Source: an uncultured Candidatus Competibacteraceae bacterium (lineage in GTDB: Bacteria; Pseudomonadota; Gammaproteobacteria; Competibacterales; Competibacteraceae). Taken from it: a stretch of 64,000 nucleotides of DNA. The translations under genes and the position numbers were made by a program. The stretch spans positions 7,493-71,492 of the forward strand of contig CAZDVY010000001.1 of the NCBI GenBank assembly GCA_964508935.1, in the 5' to 3' direction. Shown piece by piece: positions 19,012 to 25,205 of the stretch. Each line of letters begins with the position of its first letter. The stretch's first letter is position 1. The notes under the pieces are model-generated. The model had not been told where the DNA came from. It saw only the letters and a list, made by a program, of their open reading frames with translations, and did no database searches.

Positions 19012-20589
19012 TCACTCCTGCGCAAAATAGCGATTCAGAAACTCATCGAAGGACATCTCGTCCGTCGCTTCAAGTTCTCGCTGTTCGCGCCAGGACCGTT
19101 CCGCCGCTGCGATGAAAAACGGCGTCCGTTCTTCGGCCAGCGGCGGTGCCTCGAAAAAGCGCCGATGCTGTTCGGATAAGCGCCGGGCGCAGCGGAAAAA
19201 ATTCTCGCCGCTGCCGCGCATCACCGCCAGCATCTGCGCCGAGGGCGTGCGCTCTGAATCAGCCAGCGTCGCCTGTTGTTCCGCCAACGCTGCTGCGTAC
19301 AACCGTTGTTCCGCGCCCATGTCCAACAATTCGCAAATCGGCTGCAACTGACCGAGCAGTTCCGCCGCCCAGCCTCGCAACGGCAAGGCTGGCGCGTGGC
19401 GGCGCTGCAACACCAGCGCTGGATCGCGCCCAGTCAGCGCCGTCGCCATTTGATTGTCGTCAATGATGCGCCGCTCTTCGGCGTCAAACGGCGGCGATTC
19501 GGCGAGCAGACAAAGCAGCAGAAAAGCTTCTAGAAAGCGCATCTGACTGACGGTGACGCCCAGCGGTTGCAGCGGATTGATGTCCACCGAGCGCAGTTCG
19601 ACATAAGCCACGCCACGCCGTCGCAACGCTATCGTCGGTTTTTCATTACCTTGCGGCGGCTGCTTGGGCCGCATCGAGGTGTAATATTCGTTCTCGATTT
19701 GCAGAATGTTGGCGTTCAATTGGCGGTATTCGCCAGCCACTTTGACGCCGATCTGCTCGTAAGGCGGCCAGGGCGTCCGGGTCGCCTGCGCCAGACTGGC
19801 GATATATTCGGGCAGCGAGTTATAGCAAACATTGACGCCGCTTTTCTTTTCGGTGCGGTTGGTATAGCCGACATTGCTCATCCGCAGCGAAGTAGCGCAA
19901 GGACCATAGCAAGTGTGGTCGTCAAATTCCGGCAGCGTGGTGGCCTTGCCGTCGAGGAACGATTTGCAAACTGCTGGCGACGCGCCGAACAAATACAAAA
20001 TCAGCCAGCCGAAGCGTTGCAGGTTGCGGATCAGGCCAAAATAGGCGGCAGAGCGGAAATCCTGCAACGGGCGCCGGTCGCCCTCCATGTCCTGAAACGC
20101 CGCCCAGAATTCGTCCGGCAACGAGAAATTAAAGTGAATTCCGGCAATGACCTGCATGATCCGCCCATAACGCCAAGCCAGCCCACGCCGGTAAACGTGT
20201 TTCATCTGGCCTAGGTTGGAGCGGCCATATTCGGCGATGGGAATGCTGGCCTCGCCGGCCAGAATGCAGGGCATGCTCGCCGACCACAGCAATTCATCGC
20301 CGATGCGCGGATACACAAAACGGTGAATTTCATCCAGGCAACGCAGCGCCGCCTCGGCGTCCGGCAGCGGTGGGGTGATGAACTCCAGCAGCGCCTCGGA
20401 ATAATCGGTAGTGATCAGCGGATGAGTCAGCGCTGAACCGAGCGCAGCGGGATGGGGTATTTGCGAGATATAACCGTCCGGGGCGACCCGCAGCGCCTCG
20501 CGTTCCAAGCCCAGCAAGCGGCCTTTCAGCAAAGCGCGCGGATCGGCATTGAACAGTCGGGTCAGACGCTGATGAAGGATGGAGTGCAT
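19012..20589 (-). CDS. gshA: Glutamate--cysteine ligase
   Basis: From ATG 20589: MHSILHQRLTRLFNADPRALLKGRLLGLEREALRV..., collinear with E. coli GshA (...LKGIQRGLERETLRV). 525 aa. The track ORF extends to 20682, which I regard as an over-extension. Confidence 0.9.
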   Translation of the reverse strand: MHSILHQRLTRLFNADPRALLKGRLLGLEREALRVAPDGYISQIPHPAALGSALTHPLITTDYSEALLEFITPPLPDAEAALRCLDEIHRFVYPRIGDELLWSASMPCILAGEASIPIAEYGRSNLGQMKHVYRRGLAWRYGRIMQVIAGIHFNFSLPDEFWAAFQDMEGDRRPLQDFRSAAYFGLIRNLQRFGWLILYLFGASPAVCKSFLDGKATTLPEFDDHTCYGPCATSLRMSNVGYTNRTEKKSGVNVCYNSLPEYIASLAQATRTPWPPYEQIGVKVAGEYRQLNANILQIENEYYTSMRPKQPPQGNEKPTIALRRRGVAYVELRSVDINPLQPLGVTVSQMRFLEAFLLLCLLAESPPFDAEERRIIDDNQMATALTGRDPALVLQRRHAPALPLRGWAAELLGQLQPICELLDMGAEQRLYAAALAEQQATLADSERTPSAQMLAVMRGSGENFFRCARRLSEQHRRFFEAPPLAEERTPFFIAAAERSWREQRELEATDEMSFDEFLNRYFAQE

Positions 20590-20665
20590 GTTCGCCTCGT
20601 CGAAGGGGAGCGGCATTGCCAGGCAAGCGCCGGTGGACAGGATAGAGTGGCGTAACGCGGCGATT

Positions 20666-23600
20666 TTACGCCGTTGGCGCAATCAGCGGCGGCAAGGCCC
20701 GAATGATTTTGACCGTCTCGACGCTGATTTGCGCGATCTGGCCGATCAGCCGGAGCAGAAATTGTGGATCGTCGGGACGATTGGGATCGTTGACCAGGCC
20801 ACTGCGCGAATCTGTTTTGACCTGATATTGGTCGATAACCCATTCCAGAGCGCAGCGATGGCCCAGGTGATACTCCAGGGCTTCGGGCGGAACGCCGCCC
20901 AGGGTCAGCCAGTCGTTGTAAAGAATCGCCGTTTTCTCCGCATTCCAGCGCATCCGCCGCACCGTCCAGTCATGCGGTTGATCGGGCGCGTAAAGGCGGG
21001 TCAACGGATATTCCGGTTGCTGTTGATAATTCAAGTGCAGTTCAGCGAGTTGTTGACCGGCCCGGCAATAGGCCCAAAAATCTGAAGCGTAGGGAATACG
21101 CGGCAGTTCGCGCCTTAAATTGGCGGCGTAGTGTTGGCGATAGTCTTCACTGTGCAATAATCCATAAATGTAATAAAAAATATCCCATTTGCTGATCCGC
21201 GAATCCCGGTAATGCCGACTAAACTGTAGCAAAGCCCATCCAGTGATATTTTCCTGACGGTGCTGGCCGTCTTCGCTGTAAATGTAGAAGGGAAAGCACT
21301 GTGTCGAGGAACCCGCGCCGACCAGATGCATATCCACCAAACCCTGACTGATCAGCACCATAAAGGGTTTTTCTGAACCTTTATCGGTATGGCAAATCAC
21401 CCGGTTTTCCTGTTCCTGAACACGGGTCGGCGCAATCAACGGAAATTGTCCGCGCCGGTGCGTCAGTAAAGGATCGAAATAAACAAACTGCGGGGTGAAC
21501 GGTCGATAAAGGCAGATGCGGATATGGTTCGGGTTCAGTCGGGTTTTTAGGCCATTTTCTAGCGCCTTTTTTAAACTGCTGGTCCAACTGATTTTCCGGT
21601 CTTCGTAATCAACCAGATCATCTACAGTAGGTTTCGGTTCATCAGCATCCAGCCATTTGTAAACCTGCGCGTTATAAAAATTGATCGTAGTCTTTATATT
21701 GGACAACAGGCGTCCCGCGTTGAAATGATAGGCCCAGGCGTCTCTGCCAGTTTGCACGCCAATGCTGAATTTCTTGAAAACTACATGCCGGGCAATCCGC
21801 CGCCCAGCTTTTTGCTCTTTGCTGCCCAAGGGAATAAATTTTTTAAAGTCTGGTCGCAAATTTTCTGTAAGCCATGTATGATTTAAATCAACTTTAGCGA
21901 GCTGTATTGGTAAATTGGAATAAATAATCGCGTCATTCAGGATTTTCTGCTTATCGTCATATTTTAAGTAGTCTTCAGTAGAATAAATCCAAATATCTGC
22001 TTTTTTACCATCAAGCTTTGGGCGTTTAATCAAAAAGGTAATGCCGACACCGACCCGAATCTTGTTATCAAAAATATTCCCGCCTTCTTGGCGCCGACGC
22101 TCTGCTGAAGTACGCGCATTTCCTTTTAAGTTAATATGATAGATTTCTGCAAATTCTTCAGCCAGACATTGGCGCATTCCATCAAACGCCAATCCGTCAA
22201 GAAAACTATTATTGCTGACAAACGCGATAATTCCGCGAGGCTGATTGCGCAAGCGTTCGGTTGCCCAGGCAAAAGCTTTGACATAGGGATCACTCAGCGC
22301 GTTTTTATTGGATGCGCTGGAATGAGCCGCGTAAGACTCGGCAACCCATTTTTCCACTTCGCCATAGACGCGATTTTTGTTATTGTCATTTTCGTTGGCT
22401 TGCCGGGCATTATAAGGTGGATTACCGATGATAACGAAAAGATCAGAGGCTTTTTGCCGGGTGACGCGATGCATATTCTCAGGAATGGAAAATCCAAAAC
22501 TATGCTGGCGACTTTCCGCCAGTTCAAAAGTATCGACCAGGCAAATCCCTTCAAAGGGTTGATATTCGCCGGCCATTTGATAATAGGCGTGTTCAATATT
22601 CATGCTGGCGATGTAATAAGGCAGCAGCATGATTTCATTGCAATGCAATTCTTCCGTGTATTTGTGTTTGAGCGCCGCCGGGTCAATTTCCCGTAAAATC
22701 CGGGTAATAAAATTACCGGTACCGACAAAAGGATCAATAATTTGTACACCGCTGGATGAAAGCGAACGATCAAATTCCCGCCGCAACAGTTCATTGACTG
22801 AATGCACCATAAAATCCACAATCGGCTGCGGGGTGTAAACGACGCCATAGGTATCCGCCGCCTTAATGGCAAATCCCTGAAAAAACTGTTCATAAACTGC
22901 GTTGAGAAAGCTCTGTTTTTCCGCATAATCGTCAATGGTTGCGGCAGTGCTTTCAAGCACCCGATAAAAATGATCGAGCTTTTTCAGGAATTCTTCGCGA
23001 CTGAAGGCGCGGGAGGTCAACGCAGCGATCACTTGTTCAATTTCCCGGGCGATGATGTTTTTATTGATGAAGTCGGGATTATTGAACACCTTGCGGAAAA
23101 TGCGCTCGGTCAGCAAATGCTGAATGAGCATTTCTTCAACGGCGGCGACCGCCAGATTGGGATTGATGGATTCCTGGCAGAGACGGAAAAAGCTTGCAAA
23201 CGCCGCGGAAAAATGCGGATTGCCGGCGCGTTCCTGCTGGACGATCACCAGCAGCGCCTGACCGAGTTCCTGCACCTTGTCCTTGAAACCGGCGACGGCT
23301 TCCTGCCATTGTTGATAGGCCGGCGGCTGGTAGCCGAAAAACAGTTGCAGAGCTTCGATCAATAAATCCGGGGCCTGACCGATGTCGGCGCGGAATACTT
23401 CGCGTCCGTTCTGCCACAGAATGATCCGGTCGGGCGATTGAAACAGGATATTGTCCTTGGGGTAGCCAGCGGCCCATTTTTTTTCAATCTCCTGCTCCAG
23501 ATCATCCTGACGATCCTTCGCTTCCCACAGACCCAGACGCAGGGCGAACTGATCGACAATCGCCCCATCGACGCGCAAAGGGCGGCGCTGATCGCGGGCC

Positions 23601-23773
23601 AGAGCGTACTGCTCTACCAGTTTTAAATTCGGGAGCTGGCTGGCGCAATGACGCAACAACGCGGCAAATGCCGGGGCTACCGCCCCTTCATGCTGCGCAT
23701 CGGCTTGCGCCATAGCTTCCAACTGCTGGTAATAGGCGCGGATCGCTTTATGATGAGGTTTGAGATTGAGCAT
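20666..23773 (-). CDS. Single-polypeptide restriction-modification candidate (Type IIG/IIL, MmeI- or helicase-less Type ISP-like): N-terminal PD-(D/E)xK nuclease motif + gamma-class N6-adenine methyltransferase + C-terminal specificity region
   Basis: 1035 aa. Nuclease-like motif RPLRVDGAIVDQFALRLGLWEAKDRQDDL (D...ExK). SAM motif IIDPFVGTGNFI and catalytic motif IV VIIGNPPYN. The C-terminus LPRIPYASDFW...LEYHLGHRCALEWVIDQYQVKTDSRSGLVNDPN resembles the C-terminal domain of LlaGI-type enzymes as I recall it. No separate M or S gene is adjacent. Confidence 0.75.
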   Translation of the reverse strand: MLNLKPHHKAIRAYYQQLEAMAQADAQHEGAVAPAFAALLRHCASQLPNLKLVEQYALARDQRRPLRVDGAIVDQFALRLGLWEAKDRQDDLEQEIEKKWAAGYPKDNILFQSPDRIILWQNGREVFRADIGQAPDLLIEALQLFFGYQPPAYQQWQEAVAGFKDKVQELGQALLVIVQQERAGNPHFSAAFASFFRLCQESINPNLAVAAVEEMLIQHLLTERIFRKVFNNPDFINKNIIAREIEQVIAALTSRAFSREEFLKKLDHFYRVLESTAATIDDYAEKQSFLNAVYEQFFQGFAIKAADTYGVVYTPQPIVDFMVHSVNELLRREFDRSLSSSGVQIIDPFVGTGNFITRILREIDPAALKHKYTEELHCNEIMLLPYYIASMNIEHAYYQMAGEYQPFEGICLVDTFELAESRQHSFGFSIPENMHRVTRQKASDLFVIIGNPPYNARQANENDNNKNRVYGEVEKWVAESYAAHSSASNKNALSDPYVKAFAWATERLRNQPRGIIAFVSNNSFLDGLAFDGMRQCLAEEFAEIYHINLKGNARTSAERRRQEGGNIFDNKIRVGVGITFLIKRPKLDGKKADIWIYSTEDYLKYDDKQKILNDAIIYSNLPIQLAKVDLNHTWLTENLRPDFKKFIPLGSKEQKAGRRIARHVVFKKFSIGVQTGRDAWAYHFNAGRLLSNIKTTINFYNAQVYKWLDADEPKPTVDDLVDYEDRKISWTSSLKKALENGLKTRLNPNHIRICLYRPFTPQFVYFDPLLTHRRGQFPLIAPTRVQEQENRVICHTDKGSEKPFMVLISQGLVDMHLVGAGSSTQCFPFYIYSEDGQHRQENITGWALLQFSRHYRDSRISKWDIFYYIYGLLHSEDYRQHYAANLRRELPRIPYASDFWAYCRAGQQLAELHLNYQQQPEYPLTRLYAPDQPHDWTVRRMRWNAEKTAILYNDWLTLGGVPPEALEYHLGHRCALEWVIDQYQVKTDSRSGLVNDPNRPDDPQFLLRLIGQIAQISVETVKIIRALPPLIAPTA

Positions 23774-23825
23774 GGCGGCTATAATAAATGACCTTTCGCA
23801 TTGTTACCCATGAGCTTTCCTAATC

Positions 23826-25205
23826 ATGCACGACAGTTTACTTCCTGCGCCACTCCCGCACTGCCTTCCCCTCATCCCTGTGGTCGAGAGCGAGTTTACA
23901 GCCTGGCTGGAGCGACAGGATCAAGTGCTGCGCCGTTGGCTGACGACCACCGGTTTCAAGGCCAAGCCGGGCAGTTTCAGCCTGATTCCCGGTGCCGACG
24001 GTCAGTTACAGGCTGTCGTTGTCAACATCAGCCAGGCCGATGATCTATGGGCGTTGAGTCACTTGCCGGCGGTGTTGCCGGAAGGCGATTATGCGCTGGA
24101 TGTCGCCGGGTTCGACGCCGAGCAAATCGAGCGGTTGACCCTGGGTTGGGCGCTGGGCGCTTACCAGTTTGTGCGCTACAAACAACCGAAGCGGGCCATG
24201 GCGCGGCTGGCGCTGCATCCGGCCTGCGCCGCCGAGCGCATTGAGAATGTGGTAGCGGCCGTGACTTTGGCGCGTGATTTGATCAACACCCCGGCGGAAG
24301 ACCTGATGCCGGAACATCTAGCCGAGGCGACTCAGGCGCTTGCGCAGGAATTCGGCGCGACCTTTGAACAAAGCGTCGGCGAGGCGTTATTGGCGCACAA
24401 CTATCCGCTGGTTCATGCTGTCGGGCGAGCCAGCGTCCATCCGCCCCGGCTGCTCGATCTGCGCTGGGGCGATGCGGCTCATCCCCAGGTGACGCTGGTC
24501 GGCAAGGGCGTCTGTTTCGACAGCGGCGGGCTGGATTTGAAGCCTTCGAGCGCCATGCGTTTGATGAAAAAGGATATGGGCGGCGCCGCGACCGCGCTGG
24601 GGCTGGCGCGGCTAATCATGAGCGCTGGCTTGCCTATCCGACTGCGAGTCCTGATTGCGGCGGTGGATAACGCCGTCGCCGGTAACGCCTTCCGTCCGGG
24701 CGACGTGATCCGCTCGCGGCAGGGGCTGACTATCGAAATTCATAATACCGACGCCGAGGGCCGGCTGATTCTCTGCGACGCCCTCAGCGAAGCGGCCAGC
24801 GAGCGGCCCGAAGTGTTGATTGATTTCGCCACGCTGACCGGCGCGGCGCGGGTGGCGCTGGGAACGGAAGTGCCGGCGCTGTTCTGCAACGATGAGGCGC
24901 TGGCCGCCGGACTGCTGGCGGCGGCGGAGCGGGAACAAGACCCGTGCTGGCGGTTGCCCCTGCATCAACCCTACCGGGAGATGCTGGACAGCAAGATCGC
25001 CGACATCGCCAACGCTTCTGACTCCTCTTACGCCGGAGCAATCACCGCCGCCCTGTTTTTAAAGGAATTCGTTCCCGATGGCCTGCCGTGGGCGCATATC
25101 GATCTGATGGCCTGGAATCTGAAGACTCAGTCGGGCCGCCCAGAGGGCGGCGAGGCGATGGCCCTGCGCGCCGTGTTCGGCTGGCTGGAAGAACGGTATG
25201 CGTGA
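23826..25205 (+). CDS. M17-family leucyl aminopeptidase-like protein
   Basis: VGKGVCFDSGGLDLKPSSAMRLMKKDMGGAA and NTDAEGRLILCD are the M17 metal-binding signatures. 459 aa. Confidence 0.85.
   Translation: MHDSLLPAPLPHCLPLIPVVESEFTAWLERQDQVLRRWLTTTGFKAKPGSFSLIPGADGQLQAVVVNISQADDLWALSHLPAVLPEGDYALDVAGFDAEQIERLTLGWALGAYQFVRYKQPKRAMARLALHPACAAERIENVVAAVTLARDLINTPAEDLMPEHLAEATQALAQEFGATFEQSVGEALLAHNYPLVHAVGRASVHPPRLLDLRWGDAAHPQVTLVGKGVCFDSGGLDLKPSSAMRLMKKDMGGAATALGLARLIMSAGLPIRLRVLIAAVDNAVAGNAFRPGDVIRSRQGLTIEIHNTDAEGRLILCDALSEAASERPEVLIDFATLTGAARVALGTEVPALFCNDEALAAGLLAAAEREQDPCWRLPLHQPYREMLDSKIADIANASDSSYAGAITAALFLKEFVPDGLPWAHIDLMAWNLKTQSGRPEGGEAMALRAVFGWLEERYA

Follow-up and report, generated by a model that had tools for sequence, protein, structure and literature searches.

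What kind of enzyme is encoded by the single gene that separates gshA from an aminopeptidase gene in an uncultured Candidatus Competibacteraceae bacterium, and in what way do its alleles differ? The window analysed here is a stretch of 64,000 nucleotides (assembly GCA_964508935.1, contig CAZDVY010000001.1, positions 7,493 to 71,492 of the forward strand), and all coordinates below refer to it. It belongs to a genome of 3.0 Mb in 282 contigs (G000). The gene in question occupies 20666..23773 on the reverse strand, with an ATG start and 1035 codons plus a stop. A first-pass annotation, made from the letters of the window, had given the same frame, which we reproduced from the list of open reading frames (ORFs). 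Taken as a whole, the locus is very probably best explained by a DrdV-like restriction-modification (RM) enzyme of Type IIL, encoded by an accessory gene whose alleles exchange a cassette. As a gene, it adds one more ordinary member to a family that is already known and whose structure is solved.

The first-pass annotation had proposed a single-polypeptide nuclease-methyltransferase, either Type IIG/IIL or a helicase-less relative of the Type ISP enzymes, and this is supported by Pfam, by PADLOC and by an end-to-end match to DrdV. When the protein was searched against PDB with phmmer, the best match was DrdV from Deinococcus (7LO5/7LVV, 1029 aa; E = 2e-198), with aa 12-1028 aligned to DrdV 7-1025. 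LlaGI and LlaBIII, which are Type ISP enzymes, aligned to aa 188-1029 only (E = 1e-141 to 1e-153), and the N-terminal 187 aa align to DrdV and not to the Type ISP enzymes. The DrdV-DNA complex (7LO5) also provided the top Foldseek matches (E = 2e-64), and the PADLOC REase_MTase_IIG model (1024 positions) covers aa 12-987, that is, the full length.

The domain order is a PD-(D/E)xK nuclease, a helical connector, a gamma-class N6-methyladenine (m6A) methyltransferase (MTase) and a Type ISP-like recognition domain, all encoded on the reverse strand. The endonuclease domain (aa 1 to ~150; 23324..23773) is supported by the DrdV alignment, by conservation and by the structural model. The connector (aa 166-282; 22928..23278) matches ISP_coupler (PF22240, E = 6.4e-16) and is all-helical in the model. 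The MTase core (aa 289-537; 22163..22909) contains the Pfam N6_Mtase match at aa 289-468, and the target recognition domain (TRD; aa 643-1035; 20669..21847) contains Type_ISP_C (PF18135, aa 665-999, E = 8.7e-98). Among the profiles proposed for comparison, Type_ISP_C was thus strong and MmeI_Mtase marginal. An NCBIfam match to an Alw26I-family methylase fell far below threshold (35 bits against 353.5) and was set aside as uninformative. No ATPase or helicase domain was matched in Pfam, NCBIfam or PADLOC, and the length of the protein leaves no space for an ATPase/translocase domain.

The nuclease motif that had been picked out by eye (RVDGAIV...LGLWEAKD) is present and supplies D69, E84 and K86 (codons 23567-23569, 23522-23524 and 23516-23518, reverse strand), which align with D64, E79 and K81 of the DrdV triad. 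Across 120 homologues, D69 is conserved in all, and E84 and K86 in 119 each. In an AlphaFold2 model (mean predicted local distance difference test score, pLDDT, of 73; 75-91 across the first 150 residues), the nuclease core runs alpha-beta-beta-beta-alpha-beta, and Foldseek superposes the domain on the DrdV endonuclease chains 7lvv_C/7lvv_D with a target-normalised TM score of 0.89-0.90 and a root-mean-square deviation of 1.9 A. The motif is therefore upheld both by alignment, as a family-invariant D...ExK shared with DrdV, and by fold superposition. The quoted methyltransferase motifs were likewise found within the MTase core on the reverse strand: DPFVGTGNF at aa 347-355 (motif I; 22709-22735) and GNPPYN at aa 450-455, the latter containing the NPPY of motif IV (aa 451-454; 22412-22423). 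D347, G351 and G353 of motif I, N451, P452, P453 and Y454 of NPPY, and F568, the adenine-stacking Phe of motif VIII, are invariant (120/120 homologues). The C-terminal string ALEWVIDQYQVKTDSRSGLVNDPN (also written ALEWVIDQYQVKTD...) is present at aa 975-998.

The ORF is intact in all four alleles of the locus that we compared. Between these alleles, the ratio of nonsynonymous to synonymous substitution rates (dN/dS, by the method of Nei and Gojobori) was 0.09-0.14 for the nuclease domain, 0.02-0.06 for the connector and MTase, and 0.10-0.14 for the TRD. These values indicate that the whole protein is maintained as functional, with all domains under purifying selection. An orphan methylase was considered and rejected on nuclease conservation and dN/dS.

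The family to which the protein belongs is large, with more than 7,900 proteins at E <= 1e-30, mostly of 1015-1045 aa. Homologues are often named 'predicted helicase', 'DEAD/DEAH box helicase' or 'N-6 DNA methylase' in databases, and no helicase domain is on record among the homologues listed. The helicase names probably stem from Type ISP relatives.

A cassette exchanged at the end of the methyltransferase domain

The alleles differ most strongly in one block. Orthologues of G000 and the related genome G010 are 74-98% identical along most of the protein but only 29-56% identical at aa ~530-675, where GC content is also lowest. Two further alleles, P0002 and P0003, are encoded on metagenome contigs in the same slot, formed by the M17 peptidase gene, the RM gene, gshA and the malonyl-CoA decarboxylase gene. 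P0002 is 99% identical to the protein of the window over aa 1-540, 45% over aa 546-655 and 94% over aa 665-1035. P0003 combines the backbone of P0004, the G010 protein, with the cassette version of the protein studied here. All four alleles occupy one M17 peptidase/RM/gshA slot, and by this pattern they are two backbones combined with two cassettes at one locus.

At the DNA level the breakpoints are sharp. G000 and the P0002 allele (L038) are 97-100% identical down to ~22163, just past the FDGMRQCL codons, then 28-57% identical down to ~21848 (...DF), and 88-100% identical afterwards. Because point mutation cannot yield this pattern of identity, the alignment shows exchange of a block of ~105 aa by homologous recombination at conserved flanks. 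From these breakpoints and the two-by-two allele pattern we placed the cassette, of form A in this genome, at 21848..22162 on the reverse strand (aa ~538-642). This block closes the MTase domain, includes Loop III and the adenine-stacking F568, and connects to the TRD. For the same two alleles, synonymous divergence is 0 in the nuclease domain, 0.14 in the MTase and 0.25 in the TRD, an unevenness that suggests additional recombination tracts.

Same-form cassettes on different backbones gave a dN/dS of 0.06 for the A-A comparison (dS 0.87) and 0.12 for B-B (dS 1.38). Both cassette forms are thus constrained and about as old as the backbone split.

The same block varies across the family. When we built a FastTree phylogeny of the 120 homologues from an alignment that excluded the cassette columns, three forms were distributed over it. 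Form A, KGNARTSGERRRxEGGN(I/V)F, is carried by 85 homologues and form B, GGNVRKNPxLSGTTHNVFG, by 29. The remaining six (P0053, P0066, P0073, P0077, P0089 and P0114) carry form C, KGNVRKDSMRDGIPIGEKHTVFG (given also as KGNVRKDSMRDGIPIGEKHTVFGLAAMVG), with a longer Loop III, and they are six independent occurrences on the backbone tree. The tree requires at least 16 form changes, and well-supported branches force at least 12-13 of them; shuffling gave a mean of 31.9, and 2 is the lowest number possible. Ten sister pairs are 82-98% identical elsewhere and 10-45% identical within aa ~561-620, and in all ten the exchanged block lies at ~aa 540-640.

DrdV itself has a hybrid-looking cassette, in which Loop III is of A type and the next ~40 residues (WRAREKLEWLK...IEFDHIRPDAKHNWL; DrdV 600-640) are nearer to form B. 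Judging from this hybrid, smaller sub-modules may recombine too.

The base composition of the gene follows the same boundaries. GC content falls from ~0.60 in the flanks to 0.33-0.50 inside the RM gene, with the lowest value, 0.37, in the cassette, and the minimum coincides exactly with the exchanged block. GC at third codon positions is 0.70-0.78 in the flanking housekeeping genes, 0.64 in the nuclease domain, 0.63 in the connector, 0.47 in the MTase core, 0.32 in the cassette, 0.53 in the TRD and 0.67 in the last 135 codons. Both cassette forms are equally AT-rich (GC 0.37-0.39). This mosaic is consistent with the central parts having been imported repeatedly from donors of lower GC content, and amino-acid composition may also contribute to it.

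A source of cassettes inside the genome was also considered. In blastn and tblastn searches of both forms against the whole assembly, the expressed A copy was the only one found, with no second or silent copy, and an intragenomic shuffling system was rejected on this ground. A paralogue on contig C31 was rejected as a recent donor, its B-type cassette being only 66-71% identical to the allelic one.

Predicted consequences for DNA recognition

LlaGI and LlaBIII, both of Type ISP, have a coupler, MTase and TRD homologous to those of the protein studied here (aa 188-1029) and share with it six recognition loops, and the published residue-to-base code is therefore transferable. Loop III (LlaGI 1115-1138) is one of three recognition elements in the MTase domain and reads position -1, beside the methylated T:A (PMC4872093). 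According to the Type ISP rules, Gln1118 with Lys1131 is associated with C:G at -1; Ala1118, Arg1125 and Asn1131, as in KpnNIH30III, are associated with G:C; and a small hydrophobic residue at 1118 with Asn1131 but without Arg1125 is associated with an unread -1, as in LlaBIII (PMC4872093). A longer Loop III might read position +2 (PMC4872093).

We mapped Loop III of the window protein (aa 550-568, nt 22070-22126, reverse strand; KGNARTSAERRRQEGGNIF) onto LlaGI 1115-1133, so that K550 to F568 correspond to 1115 to 1133; native LlaGI numbering is the 5FFJ chain index plus 164. In form A, Ala553, Arg560 and Asn566 fall on 1118, 1125 and 1131. This is the KpnNIH30III combination and also that of DrdV (A547, R554, N560). 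DrdV recognises CATGNAC, methylates A6 and cuts 10/8 downstream (bioRxiv 10.1101/2021.01.06.425610), and by the Type ISP convention the base pair at -1 of its site is G:C. In form B, position 1118 is Ile or Val and position 1131 is Asn, and the 1125 equivalent carries no Arg. Since its three residues match those of KpnNIH30III and DrdV, form A is predicted to demand G:C, that is, the form A allele would require ...A(m6)C, and form B alleles would ignore the base next to m6A.

The code can be compared with DrdV at four positions, R554, N673, R721 and D803, which fall on LlaGI 1125, 1228, 1286 and 1368. The first three agree with the published rules for CATGNAC: in addition to R554, Asn at 1228 calls A:T at +4 and Arg at 1286 calls G:C at +6, both correctly. 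That D803 reads C at +3 is suggested on chemical grounds, with no published rule. The cassette-equivalent block of DrdV contains its base contacts N548, R554 and D564, its adenine-stacking F562 and its wedge residue K567.

For the TRD, residues were mapped by phmmer and pairwise HMMER alignments together with a hand count of the LlaGI rows. The predicted base-reading positions are Q674 and G676 (Loop IV), S732 (helix H), H772 and R773 (Loop V) and H816 (Loop VI), and they vary among the 120 homologues. His at 1368 (H816) calls G:C at +3 and Arg at 1327 (R773) calls C:G at +6. Q674, G676 and H772 have no published rule, and positions +4 and +5 are hence unassigned. On the methylated strand, the site of this allele may tentatively be written 5'-G-?-?-C-N-A(m6)-C-3'.

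Together these comparisons lead to a broader proposal, which is conceivable but a little short of probable. DrdV-like Type IIL enzymes, and possibly Type ISP enzymes, would carry a plug-in specificity module, the ~105-aa end of the MTase, which exists in forms A, B and C, is exchanged by homologous recombination at fixed conserved boundaries between genes that are nearly identical elsewhere, alleles of this locus among them, and switches the reading of -1, with G:C required by A, the position unread by B, and +2 possibly read as well by C. The mechanism that we envisage from DrdV belongs to the main explanation of the locus: one chain would clamp an asymmetric site of ~6-7 bp between its methyltransferase and recognition domains, and one adenine would be flipped out for slow m6A methylation of a single strand. 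Where several unmethylated sites are bound together, for example on phage or plasmid DNA entering the cell, oligomers would form, and their N-terminal PD-(D/E)xK domains would cleave the two strands at a set distance downstream, with no ATP or translocation. Exchange between A and B would alter restriction and methylation specificity in one step.

Several points weigh against the main explanation. The residue-to-base rules come from 11 Type ISP, not Type IIL, enzymes. The structural model is least confident at Loop III and in the loops of the TRD (pLDDT <50), and the mapping of LlaGI loops IV-VI relies on pairwise HMMER alignments. The interface residues of DrdV are replaced here: D224/E230/D231 by N231/N237/K238, K251/R252/K259 by R259/E260/D267, and K8/R12/D15/E41/R46 by A13/Q17/gap/S45/K51. 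Because these salt-bridge residues of the DrdV dimer and tetramer are not conserved, the geometry of multi-site licensing and oligomer assembly may differ from that of DrdV, although such charged interfaces belong to DrdV in particular and are not a defining trait of the family. The activity, recognition site and cleavage position of the enzyme are also ones that we infer. Finally, the cassette has 105 aa and Loop III only ~24, and because it is so much longer, it may be exchanged for reasons unrelated to the reading of bases.

This last point introduces a reading that is unlikely, though it deserves serious weight, in which cassette exchange is real and DNA specificity stays unchanged. The exchange might then reflect escape from phage anti-restriction proteins directed at this surface, a change in oligomer contacts or in cleavage licensing, or a neutral by-product of recombination between co-resident paralogues. 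The swapped block is four times the length of Loop III and extends to the MTase-TRD junction, and Loop III is well conserved within each form, giving three states only and not many. A structural relative, BREX PglX, is moreover a known target of the Ocr inhibitor (8q56 is among the fold matches). However, three DrdV base contacts (N548, R554 and D564) and the wedge K567 sit inside the swapped block, the three -1-reading positions differ between forms exactly as the published code describes, and forms A and B are both under purifying selection.

It is improbable that the gene now acts mainly as a methyltransferase, as an epigenetic regulator or orphan-like enzyme with little or no restriction in vivo. 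DrdV-type enzymes do methylate on their own, the DrdV interface residues are not conserved in this protein, the gene lies among housekeeping genes, co-oriented with gshA and 76 nt upstream of it, and four such enzymes in a 3-Mb genome would carry a risk of self-cutting. Yet the nuclease triad is intact and invariant, dN/dS in the nuclease domain is 0.09-0.14, the predicted fold matches the DrdV endonuclease at 1.9 A, and the gene has neither frameshifts nor phase-variable repeats. That the protein is a Type ISP enzyme served in trans by a helicase motor from another locus is hardly credible: its MTase-TRD unit closely resembles that of LlaGI and LlaBIII (E = 1e-141 to 1e-153) and homologues are frequently named 'predicted helicase', but an ATPase domain is absent from the protein and the adjoining genes, the N-terminal 187 aa match DrdV rather than Type ISP, DrdV works without ATP, and no domain match backs the helicase names.

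A DrdV-like Type IIL enzyme with an exchangeable cassette is of interest in several respects. Correct naming is the main practical gain, as members are often mislabelled 'helicase' or 'N-6 DNA methylase'. The locus also gives a nucleotide-resolution view of a chromosomal Type IIL enzyme that diversifies by a sub-domain cassette inside the MTase and not by its main recognition domain, with the same block swapped repeatedly across the family. We regard this polymorphism as a moderately interesting, testable addition to an ordinary gene. If the cassette sets the reading of -1, a single recombination event would shift restriction and protection specificity together, and the boundaries would offer enzyme engineers natural, pre-tested junction points. 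If the plug-in module is real, it would be a handle for re-engineering and a route to specificity change without the TRD. The exchange also bears on phage-host dynamics in Competibacteraceae, a group that abounds in wastewater treatment communities and has several such enzymes per genome.

Insertion site, neighbours and paralogues

The gene is accessory. Homologues (E <= 1e-20) were found in only 7 of 41 related genomes, whereas gshA is present in all 12 genomes of the genus. Among the latter, the RM gene lies upstream of gshA only in G000, G010 and G009. The G010 orthologue is ~81-82% identical to the protein of the window, and the G009 contig begins inside the last 55 RM codons, over which identity is 89%. 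The slot is empty in G006, G007 and G008, with gshA and the M17 peptidase gene adjacent, divergent and 117-176 bp apart. Comparison of the gshA-aminopeptidase interval thus speaks against a conserved core gene. Because the slot is filled in the closest genomes and empty in three members of the genus, the comparison shows that the RM gene was inserted into the divergent gshA/M17-peptidase spacer, of roughly 120-180 bp, in the ancestor of the closest, small Competibacteraceae subclade.

Downstream and co-oriented lies gshA, encoding glutamate-cysteine ligase (19012..20589, reverse strand; PF04262, E = 7e-159). Its ATG at 20587-20589 is backed by the aligned gshA 5' ends of three relatives, and the distance from it to the RM stop codon (20666-20668) is 76 nt (20590..20665), as previously annotated; this spacer is a remnant of the ancestral gshA-peptidase spacer. 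On the other side, a 52-nt spacer (23774..23825), supported by ORF positions and the alignment of relatives, separates the RM start (23773) from the divergent M17 leucyl aminopeptidase gene (23826..25205, forward strand; PF00883, PF21337), again in agreement with the first-pass annotation. When the 76-nt and 52-nt spacers were aligned to the ancestral spacers, neither a clean junction nor a target duplication could be defined.

The empty-site spacers of G006, G007 and G008 (L030, L031 and L032) share an operator-like palindrome, GATTTTGCGCC...GAAAATC, which in full reads GATTTTG(C/T)GCC...TCGA(T/C)(G/C)AAAATCAC. The filled site (window 20655-20675) retains only a left-half look-alike, GATTTTACGCC (GATTT-TA-CGCC), which overlaps the RM stop. 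The resemblance of GATTTTACGCC to the ancestral GATTTTGCGCC is suggestive only, and the insertion may have split a regulatory site common to gshA and the peptidase gene. Promoter-like and terminator-like consensus sites at the locus occurred only at the rate of shuffled sequence.

The neighbours encode acyl-CoA dehydrogenase, malonyl-CoA decarboxylase, GshA, M17 peptidase, 3-hydroxyacyl-CoA dehydrogenase and enoyl-CoA hydratase. As had been noted, partner genes are missing, and none of the neighbours encodes a helicase, a separate methylase, an S subunit or an integrase. The reported lack of nearby repeats also held, as no tandem repeats were found at the locus and direct or inverted repeats bracketing the RM gene gave only short, chance-level matches. 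Mobile-element hallmarks in the form of bracketing repeats, an integrase or tandem repeats are therefore all absent, and this possibility was rejected. An A8 homopolymer lies at window ~23480-23490, in RM codons ~96-98 (E-K-K), and is not kept in other alleles (P0002 has EIERKW); because they lack it, it is probably not a contingency tract.

In the M17 peptidase gene, a tract of ~420 bp (24036-24455) is 78-90% identical between G000 and the P0002-bearing contig L038, which are 97-100% identical across most of the gene. It looks like a separate recombination event in the housekeeping neighbour.

The earlier description of the enzyme as 'lone' holds at the locus but not for the genome, which has three further single-chain Type_ISP_C enzymes on other contigs. 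These are C31:21143-23605 (L002/L042), C18:10559-13576 (L003/L043) and C25:15499-17706 (L004/L044), respectively 61%, 39% and 28% identical to the protein of the window. They too are solitary among housekeeping genes: the C18 copy lies beside psd, the C25 copy between cobO and lrgB, and the C31 copy after a response-regulator gene. The contig end interrupts the C31 copy, and the C25 copy has no ISP_coupler match. Apparently truncated paralogues (frames of ~786-840 aa) proved to be contig-end cuts and not shortened genes. G007 and G010 likewise hold several Type_ISP_C copies.

Comparison with known systems

DrdV is a Type IIL enzyme composed of an endonuclease, a helical connector, an MTase (295-635) and a TRD (636-1029); it methylates slowly, cuts fast once site-bound enzymes form dimers, trimers and tetramers, and cleaves without ATP (bioRxiv 10.1101/2021.01.06.425610). 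The protein studied here resembles it in length (1035 against 1029 aa), in its identical domain order and end-to-end alignment, in the conserved D...ExK triad, motif I, NPPY and adenine-stacking Phe, and in an A-type Loop III with Ala, Arg and Asn at LlaGI positions 1118, 1125 and 1131. It differs in that overall identity is only ~34%. Apart from the catalytic Asn of NPPY, 2 of the 11 listed base contacts of DrdV are kept (K486 as K490 and R554 as R560), and all five TRD contacts are changed (N673G, R721S, Y764G, D803H and K807S). Because the base contacts differ from those of DrdV, the site of this enzyme is not expected to be CATGNAC.

Type ISP enzymes have an SF2 ATPase motor between nuclease and MTase, which the protein studied here lacks, and its N-terminal nuclease region cannot be aligned with theirs. 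A static multi-site assembly would be expected here, rather than translocation and collision.

The MmeI family is the prototype of Type IIL (PDB 5HR4; PMC2731913, PMC4833311). The first-pass annotation had likened the nuclease motif to that of MmeI-type enzymes, and the likeness stands at the level of class: both are single chains that join a D...ExK nuclease at the N-terminus to a gamma-class m6A MTase and to a TRD. Modification of one strand and cleavage at a fixed distance are traits of this class (PMC2731913, PMC4833311). MmeI is a separate sequence family, however, and the closest relative is DrdV. The MmeI_Mtase match was marginal (28.7 bits against a cut-off of 27) and lay beneath the stronger N6_Mtase match, the N-terminal and TRD Pfam domains of MmeI had no match in the RM protein, and the MmeI structure 5HR4 ranked 40th in the fold search (TMq 0.21). 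The BREX proteins PglX/BrxX are more distant still in organisation, as methyltransferases without a nuclease that are encoded in a brx operon, whereas here a nuclease is present and there are no brx neighbours; their fold matches, 8c45 and 9ewz, were distant (TMq 0.24-0.25).

The exchange of specificity segments has precedents. 'Domain movement' is a familiar process in the S genes of Type I and the Mod genes of Type III systems (PMC3983042), and in Helicobacter pylori RM genes, specificity segments are replaced by recombination between alleles and loci (PMC3983042, PMC3575425). In the limited literature searched, we found no prior description of exchange of a Loop III module in the MTase domain, which is absence of evidence and not proof of novelty. 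As in H. pylori, restriction and modification specificity would shift together. In H. pylori, however, it is the entire TRD of a Type I S or Type III Mod gene that moves, whereas the moving unit here is the C-terminal part of the MTase, comprising Loop III and ~70 further aa in three discrete forms, and the main TRD stays with the backbone.

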